Shown: positions 4,502 to 61,180 of the stretch, one piece after another | How the letters are laid out: each line of letters opens with the position of its first letter | How positions within the stretch are numbered: the stretch's first letter is position 1 | Assembly (NCBI GenBank): GCA_041659525.1 | Contig: JBAZYC010000001.1 | Location: forward strand, 525,731-589,730 | DNA from: an archaeon | GTDB lineage: Archaea > Iainarchaeota > Iainarchaeia > Iainarchaeales > JAAZKV01 | Length of the DNA: 64,000 nt | Direction: 5' to 3' | Notes under the pieces: model-generated | The model's database searches: none | Told to the model about the DNA's origin: nothing | What the model saw: only the letters and a program-made list of their open reading frames with translations | Position numbers and translations under genes: made by a program

Positions 4502-4618
4502 TAGTCTCACCAATTAAATTATTTCTCTTGTAGAACCTTTTTAAACGTTCCCCAAAAGCCCAAATTTTGTTTTCACCAAAGCTTTTATTCTTTGGTTAGA
4601 AATCTCAAGAAAATCCTC

Positions 4619-4780
4619 GCCACCCCCGCTTTTATTGAATTTTTTCTTTGGACTCTGCCTTTCTCGGCTTAAACCTTTCCCCTGAGCCCAAGGCTCAAGG
4701 GTCGCCTGTTGGCTAAAGGATTTAATGCCCCCAAAAGCAGCGGAGCCGTCCATGAAAAAATTCTTTTTTGCGGAGGTGGC
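4619..4780 (+). promoter_or_regulatory. Extended imperfect hairpin (copy 1), a candidate SD-sequestering leader or structured RNA; strand uncertain
   Basis: Nested stems are GCCACCCCCGC/GCGGAGGTGGC, GAATTTTTTC/GAAAAAATTC, TGGAC/GTCCA, CTGCCTTT/AAAAGCAG, GGC/GCC and TTAAACCTTT/AAAGGaTTTAA. The apex is a mini-hairpin plus an unpaired TCGCCTGTTGGCT. The 3' basal arm contains GGAGGTG 6 nt before ATG 4785. A second copy lies at 59579-59725. Confidence 0.6.
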
Positions 4781-4784
4781 TTTA

Positions 4785-4934
4785 ATGGATTTTTCTTTAG
4801 ATATTGATTTCCCAAAACCAAATCAGGAAGAAATAAAATTGGTAAAATGGATTGCTAAAAACAATCCTGAAGATTTAGATTCAAGAGAACTTTGGGTTCT
4901 TGAACAAACTTTGGAAGGTGATGAAGATGATTGA
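4785..4934 (+). CDS. Small acidic protein of unknown function (49 aa), first gene of the homing-endonuclease cassette
   Basis: The product is MDFSLDIDFPKPNQEEIKLVKWIAKNNPEDLDSRELWVLEQTLEGDEDD. A perfect SD (GGAGGTG) lies 6 nt upstream. The peptide is conserved in copy 2 (..KPSKEEILLVKRIARSNPDDLDSRELWVLEQAIEGDEDD), including conservative substitutions. Confidence 0.6.
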   Translation: MDFSLDIDFPKPNQEEIKLVKWIAKNNPEDLDSRELWVLEQTLEGDEDD

Positions 4935-5847
4935 ATCATCGCCGGCATGGCACTTCCAAATAGATTATAAATCTTCAAAAGAGGGTTCTATAATGGAACC
5001 TTTTTTTTCAAAAGAAATGACTCCTGATCTAGCAGAAATCTGTGGCATCCATGCAGGAGATGGGCATTTAAGAAAACGAGACAATGTAAGACGTCTGCTT
5101 TGTTTAGATGGTAGTGTTGATGAAAAAGAATACTATGATACTCATGTTGTTCCGTTGTTTGAAAGAACATTTGGTATAAAAGTTAAACCAAGATTTTTTC
5201 CCAGCAGACACACTTATGGATTTTCAGTTAGTAATAGAAAAGTTTGTGGTCTCATCCATTCCCTTGGTTTTCCTTATGGTAAAAAAACAGTTTCTGTGAA
5301 AGTACCTGAAGTAATTTTACAGTCGAATGATTTGGGAGTAATTTATAGGTTTATTAGAGGTGTATTTGATACAGACGGTACAGTTTGTTTTAGACGAAGA
5401 AAAAGACTTAGGGGTAAAAGCGAAAACGCTAATAGACATACATATCCTCGGATTTTATTGGATGTATGCTCTAAAGATTTATGTTTTGGCTTAGGTGAGT
5501 TGTTACTAAAAACAGGCGTGTTTAGGTTTAATATTTCATCCCAAAGAGCAAAAGGAAATAGAAAAAAGAAATATAAACTATGTATAGCTGGCGATAAAAA
5601 CTTGTTATTATGGGTGCATAACATAGGTTTCAAAAACAATGTGAAACATAATCGAATTTTAATTTGGGATAAATTTGGCTTTAACCCGCCCAAGCTAACA
5701 CTTAACCACCAGTTGGAAATTTTGTCAGGTAAAATTGATCCAAATATTTTTTACAAAGACGGAGAGTTTTATCATGAGCGAGAAGAATCTGTAATAGCGA
5801 GAAACAAGCAATTGTTACGAAAAATGATTGAGGTGAGTGACACCTAA
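4921..5847 (+). CDS. LAGLIDADG homing endonuclease, double-motif, free-standing
   Basis: The two LAGLIDADG motifs are LAEICGIHAGDGHL and IYRFIRGVFDTDGTV. The start ATG (4921 or 4927) overlaps the stop of the small ORF (..GGTGATGAAGATGATTGA), with GGTGAT acting as SD. Confidence 0.85.
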   Translation: MKMIESSPAWHFQIDYKSSKEGSIMEPFFSKEMTPDLAEICGIHAGDGHLRKRDNVRRLLCLDGSVDEKEYYDTHVVPLFERTFGIKVKPRFFPSRHTYGFSVSNRKVCGLIHSLGFPYGKKTVSVKVPEVILQSNDLGVIYRFIRGVFDTDGTVCFRRRKRLRGKSENANRHTYPRILLDVCSKDLCFGLGELLLKTGVFRFNISSQRAKGNRKKKYKLCIAGDKNLLLWVHNIGFKNNVKHNRILIWDKFGFNPPKLTLNHQLEILSGKIDPNIFYKDGEFYHEREESVIARNKQLLRKMIEVSDT

Positions 5848-5883: not shown

Positions 5884-5970
5884 GGCTCTGTGTGCCAATG
5901 GATACGCGACAAGACTTCGGTTGTGAAAAGAAGAAATCTTGGGATGGGGGTTCGATTCCCTCCAGAGCCG
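5884..5970 (+). tRNA. tRNA-Arg (anticodon UCG) with a 15-nt intron after position 37
   Basis: The hand fold has acceptor GGCTCTG/CAGAGCC and D arm TGCC-AATGGATA-CGCG. The anticodon stem is CAAGA/TCTTG with loop CT-TCG-G, followed by the intron at 5921-5935 and then A. The T arm is GGGGG-TTCGATT-CCCTC and the discriminator is G. The mature length is 72 nt with no encoded CCA. Confidence 0.8.
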
Positions 5971-7927: not shown

Positions 7928-8014
7928 TTAACCACATTATTTGCTTTTCTTTTAACTTGTTGCTTAAGTTATTATACTACTTTTCTTTATATATTTGCGT
8001 TTACAAGTGGTTTG

Positions 8015-9544
8015 ATGCAGTTCACTGAAATGAAGCTAAAGAATATAGAATCTACTCCTTTGGCTGACATTTTCCAAGGGCTTTCCAATAATTTTTATGA
8101 TGTAAAACCTCTTCCTCTTTCTACAAAGGAAAAAGCTTTTGCAGATTTTTTAGTTAAAGAAATTCACAAAGGTGGAATTTTAAGAAAAGAATTTGATGGG
8201 GTGGGTGACAATTTTAATGATGAGTTTGTAGACAATGTTGTTTCAATTGTTCAGCTTAATGAATTAAATGAAAAATTACCTACAAGACAACTTTTTGCAA
8301 CTTTGCTTGAAGCTATGGAAGCATTAGTTTCAAAAGTAAAATTTGTTTCTAACAAAACTCTTTTTTCAGCTTATGTATTGCATAACGCAGTTGGGCTTAA
8401 GCAATTGGCTTTTTTTTCACTTGATGATGAGTTAGAAGAATTAATGATTAATGGTCCTGAAAGTATTTTTGTTTTTCACAAAAAGTATGGGATGTGCAAA
8501 ACTAATGTTGTAATTAAAGAAAAAGAGTTATCCGATGTTATTCAAAGAATTGCTATTACGATTAACAGAGTTTTTGATTCAAAGAATGCTCTTCTTGATG
8601 CTCGTCTTCCTGATGGGAGTAGAGTTAATGCCACTCTTGGAGATGTTTCTCCAACTGGAGCAACTTTAACTATAAGAAAATTTTCTGTAGTCCCACTAAC
8701 TATTCTTGATTTAATCCAGAGTAACACAATTACTTCTGAAGCAGCTGCTTTTTTGTGGTTAATGGTGGATGGACTTGGGGTAGATCCACAAAACATTCTT
8801 GTTGCGGGCGGAACTGCTAGTGGAAAAACAACTCTGCTAAATATTTTATCAAATTTTATTAAATTAAATGAGAGAGTGGTTTCAATTGAGGATACTATTG
8901 AGCTTTCTCTTCTTGGTAGAGAGAATTGGGTTGCGCTTGAAGGAAGAACTTCAGTTGGTTCTGAAGTTACAATGGATTCTTTGTTAAAAAATTCTATGAG
9001 GATGAGACCCGATAGAATAATTGTAGGAGAAGTTAGAGGGAGCGAAGCACTTACTTTGTTCACTGCAATGGATACAGGGCACCAAGGGTGTTTGGGGACA
9101 ATTCACGCAAATAATTCTCGTGAAACTTTAGTTAAACTTCAAGAGCGTCCGCTTAGTGTTCCTCAATCAATGCTTCCTTTGCTTGATTTTATTGTAATAA
9201 TGCAAAGAAGATATTCCAAAGACAAAGGGATGCAAAGAAGAATTATTCAAATAGTGGAATTGTCAAGAATGGATGACAAAGTATTATCAGGGGTTTTGTT
9301 TGAATACGATGATAAAAGTGATACATTAAGAAGAACTGAGATTCAAAGTAGAGTTATTGAAGAAATGGCAGAAAAAAGTTCTCTTGTAAAAAACGATTTG
9401 AAAAAGGAGTTAGAAGTAAGAAAGCACATTTTGGATTGGATGTTAAAAGAAAATATAAGAAAGCCACTTGAAGTTTTAGAAGTAATTGAAAGTTATTATT
9501 ATAATCCAGAAAAAGTATTATCTACAATTTCAGGATTACTATAA
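8015..9544 (+). CDS. Type IV pilus/archaellum-family secretion ATPase (FlaI/PilB/VirB11 superfamily), intact
   Basis: Walker A is GGTASGKTTLLN and the Walker B region is PDRIIVGEVRGSEA. LDARLPDGSRVNAT and GHQGCLGTIHAN boxes are present. ATG 8015 follows an in-frame TTG at 8012. Confidence 0.85.
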   Translation: MQFTEMKLKNIESTPLADIFQGLSNNFYDVKPLPLSTKEKAFADFLVKEIHKGGILRKEFDGVGDNFNDEFVDNVVSIVQLNELNEKLPTRQLFATLLEAMEALVSKVKFVSNKTLFSAYVLHNAVGLKQLAFFSLDDELEELMINGPESIFVFHKKYGMCKTNVVIKEKELSDVIQRIAITINRVFDSKNALLDARLPDGSRVNATLGDVSPTGATLTIRKFSVVPLTILDLIQSNTITSEAAAFLWLMVDGLGVDPQNILVAGGTASGKTTLLNILSNFIKLNERVVSIEDTIELSLLGRENWVALEGRTSVGSEVTMDSLLKNSMRMRPDRIIVGEVRGSEALTLFTAMDTGHQGCLGTIHANNSRETLVKLQERPLSVPQSMLPLLDFIVIMQRRYSKDKGMQRRIIQIVELSRMDDKVLSGVLFEYDDKSDTLRRTEIQSRVIEEMAEKSSLVKNDLKKELEVRKHILDWMLKENIRKPLEVLEVIESYYYNPEKVLSTISGLL

Positions 9545-25716: not shown

Positions 25717-27357
25717 TAAATTTGTTTGCTAGTAATGAAACTTCGCTTAAACTCCTAATGTTTTGATTAACTAATGAATCTAAGAATGTTTTTCTTGAAT
25801 TTAATTCTGCCTCTATGCGATCTTTTGGAGTTCCGGTGAAGTTTTGAAGGGTTTTTAGGTACTTACTATCAATAAGGGTCTTTTCTAGTTCGTCTCTTGC
25901 TGGATCTCTTTGGAAAACTGTTTGGGTTTTTGGATTACCTTCAAGTGCCCCGTAAACTTCAGCTATTTCACTTATTCTTCTTATAGTTCCTTTTTTTCTA
26001 TCATAATATCTGTGTTCTACAATTATGATATCAAGTCCTGACATCATAATACTTGGTACATTCATTGGGGGACTTGTTAATCTAATTATTGTTTCTTCCG
26101 GACTATTCGCGTGCACAGTTCCTAAACAACCATCGTGACCAGTATTCATTGCAGTGAATAAAGTAAATGCTTCTTCATGTCTAATTTCTCCTACAATTAT
26201 TCTGTCAGGTCTCATTCTTAAAGAATTTTTTGTTAATATATCCATTTTTAGTTCTCCTGCTCCTTCTAGTCCGGGCGGTCTTGATTCTAATCTTATACAA
26301 TGTTTTATTGGTAAATTTAATTCAGCCGTGTCTTCAATTGTTATTACTCTTTCTCTTTCATTTACAAATGAAGCAAGCACATTTAGTAGAGTGGTTTTTC
26401 CAGATCCTGTTCCTCCTGAAATTAATATGTTTGCAGGTTTTGTTCCAAGTCCATCAATAGCCATCCAAAGAAATGCGGCAGCTTCGCTAGTTACTGTTCC
26501 CATTCTAATTAAATCAATTATCGAATAAGGATCTGCTCTAAATTTTCTTATAGTTAATGTTCCTCCTGAGATTGATGCTGGCGGGATAGTTGCATTTACA
26601 CGTGAACCATCAGATAATCTTGCATCAAGTAATGGTGAGGACACGTCCACTCTTCTTCCAATTTCTCTTGCGATTTTATTTACGAGATCTTCTATTTCTT
26701 GTTCTGAAAAAATTCAATATTTGTTGTCATCATTTCGTATTTTCTGTGAAAAACATAAACAGGTTTTTTTGGGCCAACAATCATTATTTCTTCTAATTGA
26801 TCATCTTTAATTAAATCATCAATTAATCCATATCCAACCATCTCTCTAACCACTGCATCTGCATAGAAGGGTATTCTTTGTTCAGGTATTCGCATGTTGG
26901 GATTGCTTTTCATTATTTCAATTATTTTTTGTTTGTAAACAATTCTTCGTTCTTCAGGATTTCTAATTTTGTAGGGGGCAATTGAAATTAATCTTGTAGT
27001 TGCTTCTTTTAGAGTATTAATTATTTTTCTATCAGCTGAAGTTGGTCTTATTGTTGGAATAAAATAATATGCTAGCGGTTTTCCTGGTATTCTATATATT
27101 TTTACTTTTCCATAAGAATCAACTTCAATTTTTTTATTTTCTTCTAACTCTTTTTCTATTGCAGTTTTTTCTGCAGAAGTGGGTTCAATTGTTGCAGAAC
27201 TTTCTTTTTTGAATTCTTGCATATCTTTATGTTTCACTTCTTGAGCAATTTTTTCTTCTTTGTCCTCGGGTTTTGTTGGTTCTACTGGGGCTAATTCTTC
27301 TGCTTGAGTGGTGGCTTTTGCACTGCCAATAATGTCCTCAAGGTAATCTGTGCTCAT
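25679..27357 (-). pseudogene. FlaI/PilB-type pilus assembly ATPase interrupted by a 1-nt frameshift at a T6 run
   Basis: The N-terminal part (26692-27357) ends ..NIEFFQNKK*. The C-terminal part continues in the -1 frame as IFSEQEIEDLVNKIAREIGRRVDVSSPLLDARLSDGSRVNAT...GGTGSGKTTLLN. The frames overlap at 26692-26713, which contains A6 (plus strand) at 26707-26712. One extra T restores a 559-aa protein colinear with 8015-9544. Confidence 0.8.
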
Positions 27358-55218: not shown

Positions 55219-56304
55219 ATGGCTAATGTTTTTGCTTCCCAAAAAGAGGTTTCGCTTTTCAAAGATGAGCGTTTTTTGTATCCTGATTTTGTTCCGGAAA
55301 AACTTCCTTTTAGAGACGAAGAGATTGGAGAACTTGTTTTTTGTCTTAAGCCCGCAACTCAGGGGAAAAAACCTACTAATGTTTTTGTTTTTGGAAAACC
55401 AGGCACAGGTAAAACTGTTTCACTTAAATTTGTATTAAATGAATTAACAGAGTTTTCAGATAGAACAAAGTGTTTGTACATTAATTGCTTTGAACTTTCT
55501 TCAAAGCAGGCAATTCTTTCAAAATTAACAAATTTTTTAGGGTATGCTGTTGCAGAAAGAGGAATTAGTTATGAAGAATTATTTTCCAAGTTTGTTAGTG
55601 TGTTAAAATCAAAAAAAATAATTCCTATTGTAGTGTTTGATGAAGCGGAGCAATTGCTCCGAAATGAAGAGGTAAAATCTTTGCTTTATGATTTGTCTCG
55701 CCTGCCTGAACAGCAAAAAGTTAATTTTGGAATGGTTTTTATTTCAAATAATAATTTGTTTTTAGCAAGTATTGATGATAGAGTAAGAAGTTCACTTCAA
55801 TGTTCAACAATTCCATTTGAACCTTATTCTCCTCCTGAAATTAAAGAGATTCTTTTAGATCGCTCAAAGTATGCTTTTGTTGATTTTGCTCTTGATAGTG
55901 ATGTAATTCCTCTTTGTGCAGCTCATGCAGCAAAACAAGGAGGGGATGCAAGAATTGCAGTTGATTTACTCCTTAAAGCTGGTAGACTTGCAGAGCGAGC
56001 AAATTCTAAAAAAGTTTTAGTAACTCATGTTCGTGCTTCTTTTATGCAGGAAAAACCAATTAAAGTAGAAATTACTTCTAACTTTTCAGAACAAGAAAAT
56101 GCAATAGTTGATTTTCTAAAAAAGAATTTAAATAAGGAAATTGATTCTCGAATGATTTACGATGCTTTGTCAAAAAAGTATGCTGAAAGAACTCTTAGGA
56201 TGAGTCTTTCTACGCTTGAAGAGAAAGGGGTTATTCTTACTTCTAAAGTTGCTAAAGGAAAAGGGACTTCTAGGATAATTTCGCTAAAAAACCCTAAAAA
56301 CTGA
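55219..56304 (+). CDS. cdc6: Orc1/Cdc6 replication initiator
   Basis: The family opening is FVPEKLPFRDEEI. Walker A is GKPGTGKT and Walker B is VVFDEAE, with a C-terminal winged helix. Confidence 0.9.
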   Translation: MANVFASQKEVSLFKDERFLYPDFVPEKLPFRDEEIGELVFCLKPATQGKKPTNVFVFGKPGTGKTVSLKFVLNELTEFSDRTKCLYINCFELSSKQAILSKLTNFLGYAVAERGISYEELFSKFVSVLKSKKIIPIVVFDEAEQLLRNEEVKSLLYDLSRLPEQQKVNFGMVFISNNNLFLASIDDRVRSSLQCSTIPFEPYSPPEIKEILLDRSKYAFVDFALDSDVIPLCAAHAAKQGGDARIAVDLLLKAGRLAERANSKKVLVTHVRASFMQEKPIKVEITSNFSEQENAIVDFLKKNLNKEIDSRMIYDALSKKYAERTLRMSLSTLEEKGVILTSKVAKGKGTSRIISLKNPKN

Positions 56305-56366
56305 TTTCACTCGTTCCAGTTAACAAACAAACGTTTTTATATGTCCATCGGAGCAATTATATTAGA

Positions 56367-57326
56367 GTGGTGAGATTTGTGGTTGAAGCTAAAACTGTTG
56401 ATAAAAAAATAAGTGTTTCAGAGAAACAAACTAAGAAAGTAATTAGAAAAGAACTTGTTTCTGCAAAAAAACAAGTAAAGAAAGAGAAAGCAAAGAACGT
56501 TAAGCAAGATGCTGATATTGAAATGCTAAAAAATGAACTTGCTAAGTTAAAGAAAAAGAAAGTTAAATCAGGCCACGTTTCAGAGTATAACTTTTTTATT
56601 AGAAAACAAATTAAATCCGGACTCACTTTTACTCAAGCAGCAAAACAATGGAGTAAATACAAAAGACTTCAACTAATGGATAAACGAAGACCAAGTGCAT
56701 ATAATCAATTCATTGGTTCTCAAATGCGTTTAGGAAAAACTTGGACTCAAGCAGTTGCTCTTTGGAAATTAGCTAAAGCGGGTAAACTCGGAAAGAAAGG
56801 AAGTACAAGAACAGTAACAAACACAGTTTACAAAACTCGAACAATTAAATCTAAACCAACTATAAAGTATAGAACTAGAACGATTACTTCTAAACCAAAG
56901 ATAAAATACAGAACAAGAACAATTACTTCAAAACCGAAGATAAAGTATAGAACTAGAACAAATACTATTATTAAAACTAGAACTATTAAATCAAAACCAG
57001 TTAAGAGAGCAAGAACTGTTAGAAGAATAGTTTCTTCTTCTCAAGGGTTTGATGTAAATTCTTTAAGAGAAATAATTAGATCTACTCAAAGTTCTTCTAT
57101 TTCAAAAACTGATTTGAGGGAAGCGATGAATCCAGATTCAGAGGAAATTGCTTTCAAAATAGTTCAAACCTATTTCATTGAAGTAGCAAGATTAGGATTC
57201 AAGAGACAATTGACTCTTGATGAAATAATTAACGCCTACTTTTATGCTCTAGCAAGAGTAAAAAGACAAAACGTTGAAATGAGTGAAGTAGCGGATGCAG
57301 TAAGAGAATCAGGAATGAAAAAGTAA
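56367..57326 (+). CDS. Basic repeat protein with two YABBY/HMG-like S.YN.FI motifs and 13-aa tandem repeats; putative DNA-binding
   Basis: It has HVSEYNFFIRKQIKSGLTFTQAAKQWSKY and RRPSAYNQFIGSQMRLGKTWTQAVALWKLA, followed by (KYRTRTITSKPKI) repeats. The start is uncertain, with GTG at 56367 or 56379. Confidence 0.5.
   Translation: MVRFVVEAKTVDKKISVSEKQTKKVIRKELVSAKKQVKKEKAKNVKQDADIEMLKNELAKLKKKKVKSGHVSEYNFFIRKQIKSGLTFTQAAKQWSKYKRLQLMDKRRPSAYNQFIGSQMRLGKTWTQAVALWKLAKAGKLGKKGSTRTVTNTVYKTRTIKSKPTIKYRTRTITSKPKIKYRTRTITSKPKIKYRTRTNTIIKTRTIKSKPVKRARTVRRIVSSSQGFDVNSLREIIRSTQSSSISKTDLREAMNPDSEEIAFKIVQTYFIEVARLGFKRQLTLDEIINAYFYALARVKRQNVEMSEVADAVRESGMKK
56829..57006 (+). repeat. In-frame 39-nt tandem repeat (about 4.5 units) encoding K(Y/T)RTRTI(T/K)SKP(K/T)I
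   Basis: Units start near 56832, 56865, 56904, 56943 and 56973. The two central units encode identical peptides but differ at many synonymous sites. Confidence 0.8.
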
Positions 57327-59454: not shown

Positions 59455-59578
59455 ATATTAGTTATTCAATGGGAACATTTAATACTTTCTTAAAGAGTTT
59501 TTCAATTATCTTTTGTTAAACATTAGTTCTATTACATCCCCATATTTGAGTAAGTGATATTTTTTAATTAAAACTATT

Positions 59579-59725
59579 GCCACCTCCGCTTTGTCGAATT
59601 TTTTCGTTGGACTCTGCTTTTCTCGACTTAAACCTTTTCCCTTTAGGTCGCCTGTTGGCTAAAGGTTTAATGTCTCCAAAAGCAGCGGGGCCGTCCATGA
59701 AAAAATTCGTTTTTTGCGGAGGTGG
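59579..59725 (+). promoter_or_regulatory. Extended imperfect hairpin (copy 2), a candidate SD-sequestering leader or structured RNA; strand uncertain
   Basis: Nested stems are GCCACCTCCGC/GCGGAGGTGGC, CGAATTTTTTC/GAAAAAATTCG, TGGAC/GTCCA, CTGCTTTT/AAAAGCAG, GAC/GTC and TTAAACCTTT/AAAGGTTTAA. The apex is CCT-TT-AGG plus TCGCCTGTTGGCT. Confidence 0.6.
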
Positions 59726-59729
59726 CTCA

Positions 59730-59874
59730 AATGATTTTTTTAAATAATTTAAGTAAACCCTCAAAAGAGGAAATATTGTTAGTAAAAAGAATTGCAAGAT
59801 CCAATCCAGATGATTTGGATTCAAGAGAACTTTGGGTTCTTGAACAAGCTATTGAAGGTGATGAAGATGATTGA
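59730..59874 (+). pseudogene. Small acidic ORF of cassette copy 2, out of frame with its SD-served ATG because of a T8 run
   Basis: ATG 59730 (GGAGGTG 6 nt upstream) reads MIFFK*. The conserved peptide frame (..LNNLSKPSKEEILLVKRIARSNPDDLDSRELWVLEQAIEGDEDD*) is +1 relative to it. Removing one T from T8 (59734-59741) joins them. Confidence 0.6.
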
Positions 59875-61180
59875 TTCATCGCCGGCAAAGCACTTCCAAA
59901 TTGATTATAAATCTTCAAAAGAGATTTATTCTATGGATTTTGATTTATTCAAGTTAGCTTATTTTGAGAACATCAATAAAGTGGTTTATTTTAAGGGCAC
60001 TAAGTGCAGAGAGTTGTTTACAGAGCTTATAACTGAAGTTTGTACAAAAAAGAATTGTTTACGTCAACATTTAGCAAAAGAGCTTTCGGGGACTTATAAT
60101 TCGAATTTATCAACAATGCAATATTTTATTTCTTCCAAAGAATACTTTCCCATTTATTTAACTTCAAAAATTATTAGTAAACTAAGCGAAGAAAGACAGG
60201 AGTATTATAAAAATGCTTTCAATAAATCAGTAGAATATTTCAAATGTGGTACTTCAAAAGAATGGACTATTTTTCCAAAAAAATTATCTGCGGAACTAGC
60301 TTGGCTTTGCGGAGCGATTGCTGCAGATGGTTGGATTACTAAAGAATCTTTTTCAGGTTATGAGCGAATAGGAATAGCTGATTTTCATAAAAAAGCATTA
60401 CTAAAAGCCAGTCTTTTTTTTATGAAATGTTTTGGTCATGAACCCGTTGTAAAAAGGCACAACAAATTACAATGTTGGCAAATAGTTTTTCGTTCTAAAG
60501 CAATCACACAATTTTTTACCACCTATCTTGGTTTTCATTATGGGGTAAAAGTGTATGACATTTGTGAGCCAAAGATTTTGAAAAATTCAAAGTATCGCTT
60601 GGATTATGCAAGTGGGGTTATGAGCTTTGATGGATCAGTTGCGATGGATGGGGTTGTGTCTTTAGGTTGTGCAAGCGAAAAACTTGCTCAAGATATTCAC
60701 ACGATCCTTTTGGAAAATGGATTAAAAACTAGATTAACTAAAAAGAAATCTGAAAAGCAAAATTTATTTTTTGTAAAATCCGAAGGTTTGTTGCATAATG
60801 TGGATTCAAGTAAGTGGATTTCGTTGTTTGGGGTTGATATTGAAAAAGGTCAGAGGCTTGATGCACTTGTGAATGGATTTAAGGATACTCCTCTTTCTGA
60901 GCAAGATGCCTTACTTCGTCTTAAACACTTTGTAAATTATCCATCAAAAAATGAGTGTCCAATTTATCGCATTTTCTTTGTGTTGAAAAATAAAAGTTCA
61001 ATAAAGAGGCAGGATTTACTTAAATTAACTAAACTTCCGCATGTAACTTTTTACAAATATGTGTGGGTGTTAAGGAAAGCAAATATTGTCTCTTGTTATA
61101 CTGGTCAATTTTGGAGGGGATTTGAAAACACATACAAATTCAATTATAATATTGAAGAGTGGCGTGTTCCTAGTCTTTGA
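59861..61180 (+). CDS. LAGLIDADG homing endonuclease, double-motif, with an extra N-terminal region of about 130 aa
   Basis: The motifs are LAWLCGAIAADGWI and RLDYASGVMSFDGSV. The N-terminal 22 aa, MKMIDSSPAKHFQIDYKSSKEI, are shared with copy 1. The start is ATG 59861 or 59867. Confidence 0.8.
   Translation: MKMIDSSPAKHFQIDYKSSKEIYSMDFDLFKLAYFENINKVVYFKGTKCRELFTELITEVCTKKNCLRQHLAKELSGTYNSNLSTMQYFISSKEYFPIYLTSKIISKLSEERQEYYKNAFNKSVEYFKCGTSKEWTIFPKKLSAELAWLCGAIAADGWITKESFSGYERIGIADFHKKALLKASLFFMKCFGHEPVVKRHNKLQCWQIVFRSKAITQFFTTYLGFHYGVKVYDICEPKILKNSKYRLDYASGVMSFDGSVAMDGVVSLGCASEKLAQDIHTILLENGLKTRLTKKKSEKQNLFFVKSEGLLHNVDSSKWISLFGVDIEKGQRLDALVNGFKDTPLSEQDALLRLKHFVNYPSKNECPIYRIFFVLKNKSSIKRQDLLKLTKLPHVTFYKYVWVLRKANIVSCYTGQFWRGFENTYKFNYNIEEWRVPSL

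Follow-up and report, generated by a model that had tools for sequence, protein, structure and literature searches.

Genes of the phage T4 type such as I-TevI, I-TevII, I-TevIII, segB and mobE are regulated by hairpins that sequester the ribosome-binding site (RBS), and these hairpins are thought to keep expression low or to limit it to transcripts without the 5' arm (PMC2988022). For I-TevI, segB and mobE of T4, late transcripts start in such a way that they lack the inhibitory arm (PMC2988022). We describe here a long hairpin found twice in a 64,000-nt (64-kb) stretch of an archaeal contig of the Iainarchaeota (GenBank assembly GCA_041659525.1, contig JBAZYC010000001.1, positions 525,731 to 589,730 of the forward strand; hereafter the window), each time in front of a small open reading frame (ORF) and a LAGLIDADG endonuclease-like gene. 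As in T4, a consensus Shine-Dalgarno (SD) sequence a few nucleotides before an AUG is paired in a stable structure at the 5' end of a homing-endonuclease-type cassette, and RBS sequestration at such a cassette is, as a principle, already known. The T4 hairpins are short, local, idiosyncratic and of bacteriophage origin, whereas the present family is archaeal, about 190 nt long, and built of 7-9 helices with invariant loops. Unlike the T4 hairpins, the present leader masks also the AUG and the first codons, and in most copies the masked start is that of the small upstream ORF and not that of the endonuclease gene, which appears to have a leaderless promoter of its own. Finally, an internal promoter (AAAGGATTTAATG, with a predicted transcription start site (TSS) near GUCCA) can only be suspected here.

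Ribosomal-protein leaders and the phage T4 RegA, gp32 and gp43 operators are likewise cis-acting structured leaders placed over the SD and the AUG, and by analogy the conserved loops and bulges described below could be a protein-binding surface, with autoregulation by a product of the locus as a possibility. However, the hairpin resembles no Rfam leader, and whereas in such operators the protein usually closes an open site, the present RNA is predicted to be closed on its own. HEARO/omega-RNA elements resemble it in being large, conserved structured RNAs that adjoin a nuclease ORF and are present several times per genome. The hairpin differs from them by having no Rfam match, by enclosing the translation start of an ORF, by lying at syntenic and not transposed loci, and by showing no sign of a guide segment; LAGLIDADG enzymes, in contrast to these systems, recognise DNA via protein contacts.

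What is new is a conserved, multi-helix archaeal family of about 190 nt that is absent from Rfam, the masking of the AUG and first codons together with the SD, the conserved small ORF attached to it, and the setting in apparently largely leaderless DPANN genomes, at syntenic loci and with several paralogues per genome. Literature searches returned no description of the cassette in DPANN or Diapherotrites. To our knowledge, conserved cis-regulatory RNA structures are scarce in archaea and none has been described for DPANN lineages.

The two hairpins and their RNA family

The two copies, located at positions 4619-4780 (162 nt) and 59579-59725 (147 nt) of the plus strand, have the extents and sequences reported in an earlier note made from the window sequence alone. 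Copy 1 comprises the helices P1-P6 with an apical P7/P8 and scored 126.2 bits with the covariance model described below (at 4612-4781), while copy 2 scored 136 bits (at 59572-59727). In copy 1, P1 is formed by GCCACCCCCGC (4619-4629) paired with GCGGAGGTGGC (4770-4780); the SD GGAGGTG (4772-4778) lies within its 3' arm, and the anti-SD arm CCACCCCC (4620-4627) exhibits one C-A mismatch towards it. The 5' arm of P2, GAATTTTTTC (4637-4646), is invariant, contains a T6 run and has GAAAAAATTC (4754-4763) as its partner. Copy 1 contains also a CUC/UCC internal loop, a bulged U and the 7-nt bulge CGGAGCC (4741-4747). In copy 2, P1 pairs 59579-59589 with 59715-59725 and the SD is at 59718-59724.

Folding confirmed the long interrupted hairpin that the note had proposed, in each copy and on either strand, and none of 200 shuffled sequences folded as well. 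The energies were -69.9 kcal/mol (z -5.4) on the plus strand and -78.9 kcal/mol (z -7.5) on the minus strand for copy 1, and -67.9 kcal/mol (z -9.2) and -65.2 kcal/mol (z -10.2), respectively, for copy 2. The compensatory change from GGC/GCC to GAC/GTC between the copies is real, and the same pair is G-C in 55 and A-U in 7 sequences of the family. The C-A juxtapositions remarked in copy 1 on the plus strand are three by our count. A 13-mer described as unpaired is present in both copies but contains a 3-bp mini-hairpin, GCC-N4-GGC, which flips to GGC-N-GCC in other members and is restricted to one subfamily. The 7-nt bulge is kept: throughout the family it appears as CA(G)AG(A/C)C, 6-7 nt long. 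The structure is not limited to the six nested helices first drawn, since an outer helix, P0, adds to it and brings the whole to about 190 nt.

Pairwise alignment of both regions showed that their similarity begins a few bases 5' of the hairpin, spans the small ORF and stops just past the start of two different LAGLIDADG-like ORFs. A covariance-model search of the 64 kb found no third copy. As the note had stated for some of these classes, neither signal recognition particle RNA, RNase P RNA nor C/D-box RNA fits the element in our own sequence comparison, and the same holds for kink-turn and bulge-helix-bulge motifs. No Rfam family matched either: in the window only a tRNA (5884-5970) passed the Rfam 15 gathering threshold, and permissive Rfam scans of both copies gave only E >= 0.08, with scores far under the thresholds.

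Further homologues, on which the proposal of a family depended, turned out to be numerous, with about 135 distinct copies beyond the window in metagenomes and in genomes of Iainarchaeota (Diapherotrites). The small ORF has 18 relatives in a protein collection, and the contigs of several of them all carry the same hairpin before the ORF. A DNA-pattern scan of metagenomes with the 5' half of the hairpin led to 70 loci, among them 61 distinct intact copies and 1 chance match. In the same way, a scan of one genome per species with the 3' half gave 88 loci, including 9 chance matches in bacteria, and brought the pooled set to 119 distinct elements. The 3'-half pattern hit 1 locus in viral contigs, a chance match that was rejected by the covariance model. 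The real matches of the genome scan were mostly labelled Candidatus Iainarchaeum, Forterrea, AR10 or unnamed archaeon, and the family is therefore placed in the Iainarchaeota (Diapherotrites), a DPANN lineage. A few copies came from bins labelled Falkowbacteria, Chloroflexi or Thaumarchaeota, for which we suspect mis-binning. One metagenome-assembled genome carries at least 6 copies. Interrupted or partial copies were seen at L011 (1842-1943), L069 (562-700), L014 and L029, where the hairpin is intact to P3 or P6 and other sequence takes the place of its 3' part; in L011 and L069 this is another short GC-rich hairpin.

RNAalifold on a MAFFT alignment missed P3 and P4 owing to indels between subtypes, and the structure P1-P6 was therefore set by hand for a covariance model built from 42 diverse copies. 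The model was then used to re-align two independently ascertained sets, of 62 metagenome and 76 genome sequences. Standard pairs filled 92.9% of the cells in the metagenome set and 92.3% in the genome set, and changes on both sides were found at 28 and 30 of the 48 pairs, respectively. The covariation score was 0.191 compared to a shuffled mean of 0.088 in the metagenome set and 0.221 compared to 0.087 in the genome set, and in each set none of 500 shuffles reached the observed value, so that the covariation expected by the note is present. Sliding the 3' partners by 1-3 columns, as a control, lowered the pairing to 35-58% and the covariation score to <= 0.07.

P4 covaries at 8 of its 8 pairs, with variants such as CUGCUUUU/AAAAGCAG, UCGAAUUU/AAAUUCG, GCGCGGCG/CGCCGCGC and GUGCACUG/CAGUGCAC. 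The P2 helix (GAAUUUUUUC/GAAAAAAUUC), the base of P6, the CUC/UCC internal loop and the bulged U are near-invariant, and the tip of the hairpin is variable, with at least 4 apical architectures among the subfamilies. The pairing is conserved and covaries, and the hairpin is a strongly covarying RNA structure family of about 190 nt of the Iainarchaeota, without an Rfam entry. With about 135 distinct examples, covariation in most helices and no existing entry, it is ready for definition as a new RNA family. It marks a phylum-wide set of cassettes, in which several LAGLIDADG nuclease-like paralogues per genome would share one common 5' control module.

Pairing of the Shine-Dalgarno sequence, start codon and first codons

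In both window copies the SD GGAGGTG (4772-4778 and 59718-59724) lies 6 nt before the ATG of the small ORF (4785 and 59731), as the note had seen, and the heptamer occurs in the 64-kb window at these two cassettes only. In essentially all members of the family, SD and anti-SD form the basal helix: the 3' arm of P1 carries GGAGGUG in almost every copy, opposite the complementary CACCUCC of the 5' arm. Single substitutions in the heptamer occur in a few copies, and P1 is 92-94% paired in the aligned sets. The SD arm is constant and mutations land on the opposite, anti-SD arm; outside the SD core, the adjoining pairs covary (CCGC/GCGG to CCAAU/AUUGG). In most copies P1 consists of 8-13 consecutive, mostly G-C Watson-Crick pairs, and the full folds reach about -55 to -81 kcal/mol. 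Every intact copy abuts an SD-led ORF, and the start codon follows the SD by 5-7 nt in most copies (range 1-8).

The pairing continues beyond the SD. Family-wide, the 10-15 nt upstream of P1 pair with AUG-proximal codons to form P0, which joins the 5' flank to codons 1-7 so that SD and AUG are both enclosed. In copy 1, the P0 5' arm (ATCT, then AAGAAAATCC, 4602-4616) pairs with bases 4787-4802 at the start of the small ORF, and the extended fold has a minimum free energy of -81.1 kcal/mol (z -7.6). P0 tracks the coding sequence, as in AAAACC/GGUUUU, AAAACUC/GAGUUUU and AAAAUCC/GGAUUUU, and it can flip its A-rich and U-rich arms, as in UUUUUCA/UGAAAAA. When partners were shuffled among copies, the matched arms gave a mean of -6.48 kcal/mol compared to -4.82 kcal/mol (standard deviation 0.19) for the shuffled ones, and 0 of 300 shuffles were as low. 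Occlusion of the SD by the fold, as proposed, agrees with the predicted probability of the SD being unpaired, which has a median of 0.000 in the full leader and rises to 0.33-0.42 when the 5' arm is omitted.

Expression model and rival explanations

Three sites recur in many genomes, with syntenic cassettes: one divergent from an HVO_2753-type Zn-ribbon gene (copy 1 of the window), one downstream of a Mg-chelatase-like gene, and one adjoining a GTPase gene (copy 2). Among genomes sharing these sites the neighbouring proteins are 48-82% identical. At the Zn-ribbon site, the nucleotide conservation of the hairpin exceeded that of the Zn-ribbon coding sequence in 10 of 10 genomes compared, e.g. 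69.5% versus 54.7%. No empty insertion site was found, the same three sites being occupied in many diverged genomes. Since the sites are syntenic across deeply diverged genomes, the cassettes look like old residents and not recent insertions, which argues for long residence or domestication and raises the question whether these are domesticated 'homing endonucleases'.

At the Zn-ribbon site the hairpin stands between divergent genes, and in 6 of 9 loci (the window, L005, L077, L115, L049 and L164) a TATA-like box precedes the first base of P0 by 28-31 nt. This spacing fits a dedicated transcript that would start exactly where the structure starts. From it and from the fixed SD/AUG geometry we infer that the RNA is the plus strand and that its transcript takes in the 5' arm. 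We consider it probable, with a good measure of doubt, that the element is a plus-strand 5' leader masking the small ORF at its SD and AUG. In this model, the 5'-most 25-30 nt of a rod of about 190 nt, made of P0-P6 and the variable tip, would pair with the whole translation-initiation region, P1 holding the SD GGAGGUG against the anti-SD CACCUCC and P0 holding the AUG-proximal codons against the 5' flank. By default the ribosome would be unable to load on the small ORF and its translation would be off. Release might come from a trans-acting factor, or from processing or cleavage, at the invariant mid-stem (P2, the CUC/UCC loop, the U bulge and the 6-7 nt bulge). It might also come from shorter transcripts that start at promoter-like sequences of the 3' arm (AAAGGATTTAATG / AAAGGAUUUAAUG) and are free of the anti-SD. 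In copy 1, AAAGGATTTAATG (4715-4727, plus strand) lies in the 3' arm of P6 and resembles the B recognition element (BRE) and TATA box of the leaderless promoters of this genome; it is a possible internal promoter, with a TSS near GTCCA (4748-4752).

Several points weigh against this model. The caveat on strand raised in the note stands, and over the whole family G-U occurs about as often as A-C. A first count gave 7 G-U against 16 A-C; once an artefact of the P6 bulge register was removed in the model-based alignments the two were about equal, and the usual signature of a plus-strand RNA is absent. The conserved loop, all-pyrimidine on the plus strand (CUC/UCC), would read on the minus strand as a tandem G-A loop, which is the more typical form for structured RNAs. 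A conserved mid-stem of 150 nt exceeds the need of a simple SD mask, and something more is probably going on. Oligo-T runs, possible archaeal terminators, are found on both strands. Across all copies there is no universal upstream TATA box and, measured from P2 or P1, such boxes gather at no fixed distance, apart from a weak excess at -49 to -35 (23 of 101 copies).

Some of these points would suit an independent structured non-coding RNA, encoded on either strand and acting in trans, perhaps as a partner of the neighbouring LAGLIDADG or helix-turn-helix (HTH) proteins or as their regulator; for such an RNA the overlap with the small ORF would be secondary. The primary sequence of the mid-stem (P2, loops and bulges) is conserved beyond what masking needs, the element is always linked to nuclease-like genes, the wobble statistics show no plus-strand bias, the minus-strand loop would be GA-rich, and many copies have GGUUUU after the hairpin on that strand. 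However, the two outer helices are always made from the SD and first codons of a translated ORF and track its sequence, for which a free-standing RNA has no reason; no promoter/terminator pair consistently brackets the hairpin, and the apical domain is not conserved. We regard such an RNA as rather unlikely. A further reading, in which the rod does more than mask passively and is the functional RNA partner of the adjoining LAGLIDADG/HTH proteins or of the small protein, either in a nuclease-associated ribonucleoprotein or as a DPANN-specific autoregulatory operator, is unlikely. In that case the invariant mid-stem features (P2, the CUC/UCC loop, the U bulge and the 6-7 nt bulge) would form its protein-recognition surface.

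The symmetry of G-U and A-C would be expected also if the element acted as DNA, that is, if it were an imperfect palindrome serving as bidirectional insulator or terminator, as a carrier of divergent promoter-like boxes, or as a protein-binding or cruciform site. Such a reading takes the T6 runs of both strands and the AAAGG-TTTAA boxes of both arms as its signals, and puts the apparent compensation down to template switching within a strand, from one arm to the other. In L064 the CUC/UCC loop was converted in one step to the perfect complement CUC/GAG, a signature of palindrome correction, and the invariant blocks TTTAAT/CTTAAA and T6/A6 look like TATA and terminator signals of archaea. However, the asymmetric bulges and loops have persisted unchanged, and were not erased, across about 135 copies, P4 covaries freely as a helix would, and P0 joins non-palindromic flanks to coding sequence and covaries. 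At the Zn-ribbon site, moreover, the hairpin between divergent genes has nothing to terminate. A role at the DNA level is thus an improbable explanation.

The masking leader resembles a riboswitch or an RNA thermometer in that the SD is sequestered in a conserved structure, which ligand or temperature would have to open, and one subfamily has a three-way apical junction. Operation in either manner, as the note had suggested, is very unlikely. A riboswitch is disfavoured because the apical and junction domain differs completely between subfamilies, with at least 4 architectures, and because inspection found no conserved alternative (anti-anti-SD) partner for the anti-SD or the SD. A thermometer is disfavoured because the 8-13 mostly G-C pairs of P1 and the energies of the full folds, about -55 to -81 kcal/mol, are far from marginal stability. 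The several copies per genome stand before paralogous nuclease genes and not before metabolic genes. A miniature inverted-repeat transposable element or dispersed palindromic repeat of the ERIC or Correia-like type was rejected, as all intact copies abut an SD-led ORF, the loci are syntenic and the 64 kb hold only two copies; so was the leader of a type I toxin-antitoxin system, the small protein being acidic and hydrophilic and not a small hydrophobic toxic peptide.

The small ORF, the LAGLIDADG gene and their surroundings

The note had spoken of the masked RBS of a nuclease operon. This is not supported: the masked SD serves a conserved ORF of 33-56 aa, and the LAGLIDADG ORF has a BRE/TATA of its own. 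The ORF opened by the masked start is 33-56 aa long in most copies and belongs to one of two conserved families; in a few loci (L045, L017, L026 and L061) it is itself long. In the window, the small ORFs code for 49 aa (MDFSL...RELWVLEQTLEGDEDD, 4785-4934, plus strand) in the first cassette and 47 aa (59731-59874, plus strand) in the second. Acidic and hydrophilic in composition, the small protein is predicted to form two amphipathic helices; the AlphaFold2 model of the 49-aa protein exhibits two helices with a predicted local distance difference test (pLDDT) value of 74. We found no HTH or ribbon-helix-helix (RHH) match and no informative sequence match for it, and a Foldseek search with the model gave no meaningful match (E >= 5).

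Directly after the stop codon of the first small ORF lies a CGCCGGCA box (4940-4947, plus strand), conserved at the nucleotide level across different reading frames, followed by a BRE/TATA-like CCAAATAGATTATAAAT (4956-4972, plus strand) whose TATA hexamer is 28 nt before the ATG at 4993. The second cassette carries the same CGCCGGCA box (59880-59887) and a ATTATAAA TATA box (59904-59911), also on the plus strand. Nearly all cassettes of the family have both elements in this spacer: a CCGG(C/A)A box, which is retained although the reading frame differs, and a BRE/TATA-like CAAAGCG-(A/C)TT(A/T)TAAA about 28 nt before the nuclease ATG, with CAAAGCG-ATTATAAA as a second form. Because of this conserved BRE/TATA 28 nt before the ATG, the nuclease gene looks like an ordinary leaderless gene with its own promoter, by which it would mainly be served.

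In 21 of the 52 window genes (long ORFs) a TATA-like hexamer falls in a sharp peak at -31 to -28 from the first ATG, SDs are absent from most window genes, and the host genome appears to use mainly leaderless mRNAs. With full-length SDs confined in the window to the two cassettes, such a genome would offer a natural system for SD-dependent initiation and its repression.

The CCGG(C/A)A box could be an operator for the small protein. This arrangement recalls the C-protein restriction-modification systems, in which, as here, a small gene precedes and overlaps the endonuclease gene and a conserved box (here CCGGCA) stands beside the endonuclease promoter. In contrast to C-proteins, the present small protein has only the two predicted helices and matches neither HTH nor RHH, and C-protein systems are without a giant SD-masking leader.

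The first LAGLIDADG endonuclease-like ORF (4993-5847, plus strand) matches Pfam LAGLIDADG_3 and, among NCBIfam models, intein endonuclease regions, and both its acidic motifs of the GDG/TDG type are present (AGDG and DTDG). The second (59933-61180, plus strand) is of a different subfamily, with a C-terminal extension and the motifs AADG and SFDG. Family-wide, the downstream ORFs are LAGLIDADG-like, often with an N-terminal HTH, and match by NCBIfam the endonuclease parts of intein-containing proteins; LAGLIDADG_3 was found in 9 of the 12 that were scanned, some under the curated cut-off. The domain and the acidic motif residues that define a LAGLIDADG homing endonuclease are therefore both present in the downstream ORFs. 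A PDB sequence search with the nuclease ORF gave no match. The first LAGLIDADG frame is open upstream to an ATG at 4921/4927, overlapping the stop of the small ORF, and in most loci the frame is likewise open back to an ATG overlapping that stop; a longer nuclease isoform coupled to the small ORF is thus possible.

The 3' end of the small ORF (4915-4945 and 59855-59885; GGUGAUGAAGAUGAUUGA) contains GGUGAU, an SD-like sequence 4-5 nt before the ATG at 4927/59867. The same segment includes a C-box-like GUGAUGA, for which the Rfam C/D-box match was only at chance level, and a potential stem of 8-9 bp, GGUGAUGA(A)/(U)UCAUCGCC, spans the stop codon of the small ORF. Some cassettes, judged by eye, apparently encode a hydrophobic peptide directly after the small ORF, and their LAGLIDADG ORF lies further downstream (L016, L033, L040, L046, L064, L072, L075, L076, L107, L120, L122, L124, L127, L137, L139, L145 and L150). 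These cassettes may be a distinct variant.

Upstream of copy 1, a CTTTTTAAAC box (4537-4546) is conserved at the Zn-ribbon site in related genomes; it is apparently the TATA box of the Zn-ribbon gene and possibly bidirectional. Next comes a small hairpin, ACCAAAG-CUUUUAUU-CUUUGGU (4575-4596), whose loop, 28-31 nt upstream of P0, is a second TATA-like box.

The tRNA gene at 5884-5970 (plus strand), 37 nt past the first LAGLIDADG ORF, scored 43.7 bits in Rfam, has an 18-nt insertion in the anticodon arm, and its anticodon was not named by ARAGORN; related cassettes lie directly downstream of tRNA genes in L028, L033 and L039. In L002 (5527-6171) and L003 (3142-3786), about 2 kb downstream of one cassette, a bAvd-like gene is followed by a reverse transcriptase, and the pair looks like a diversity-generating retroelement. 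Elsewhere in the window, four copies of a 71-nt unit (56818-57029), with starts 39, 39 and 63 nt apart and 62-77% identity, lie inside the ORF at 56298-57326. Finally, the segments 8657-9134 and 26083-26566 are inverted repeats of 73-74% identity, one arm of which lies in a 510-aa ORF at 8012-9544.

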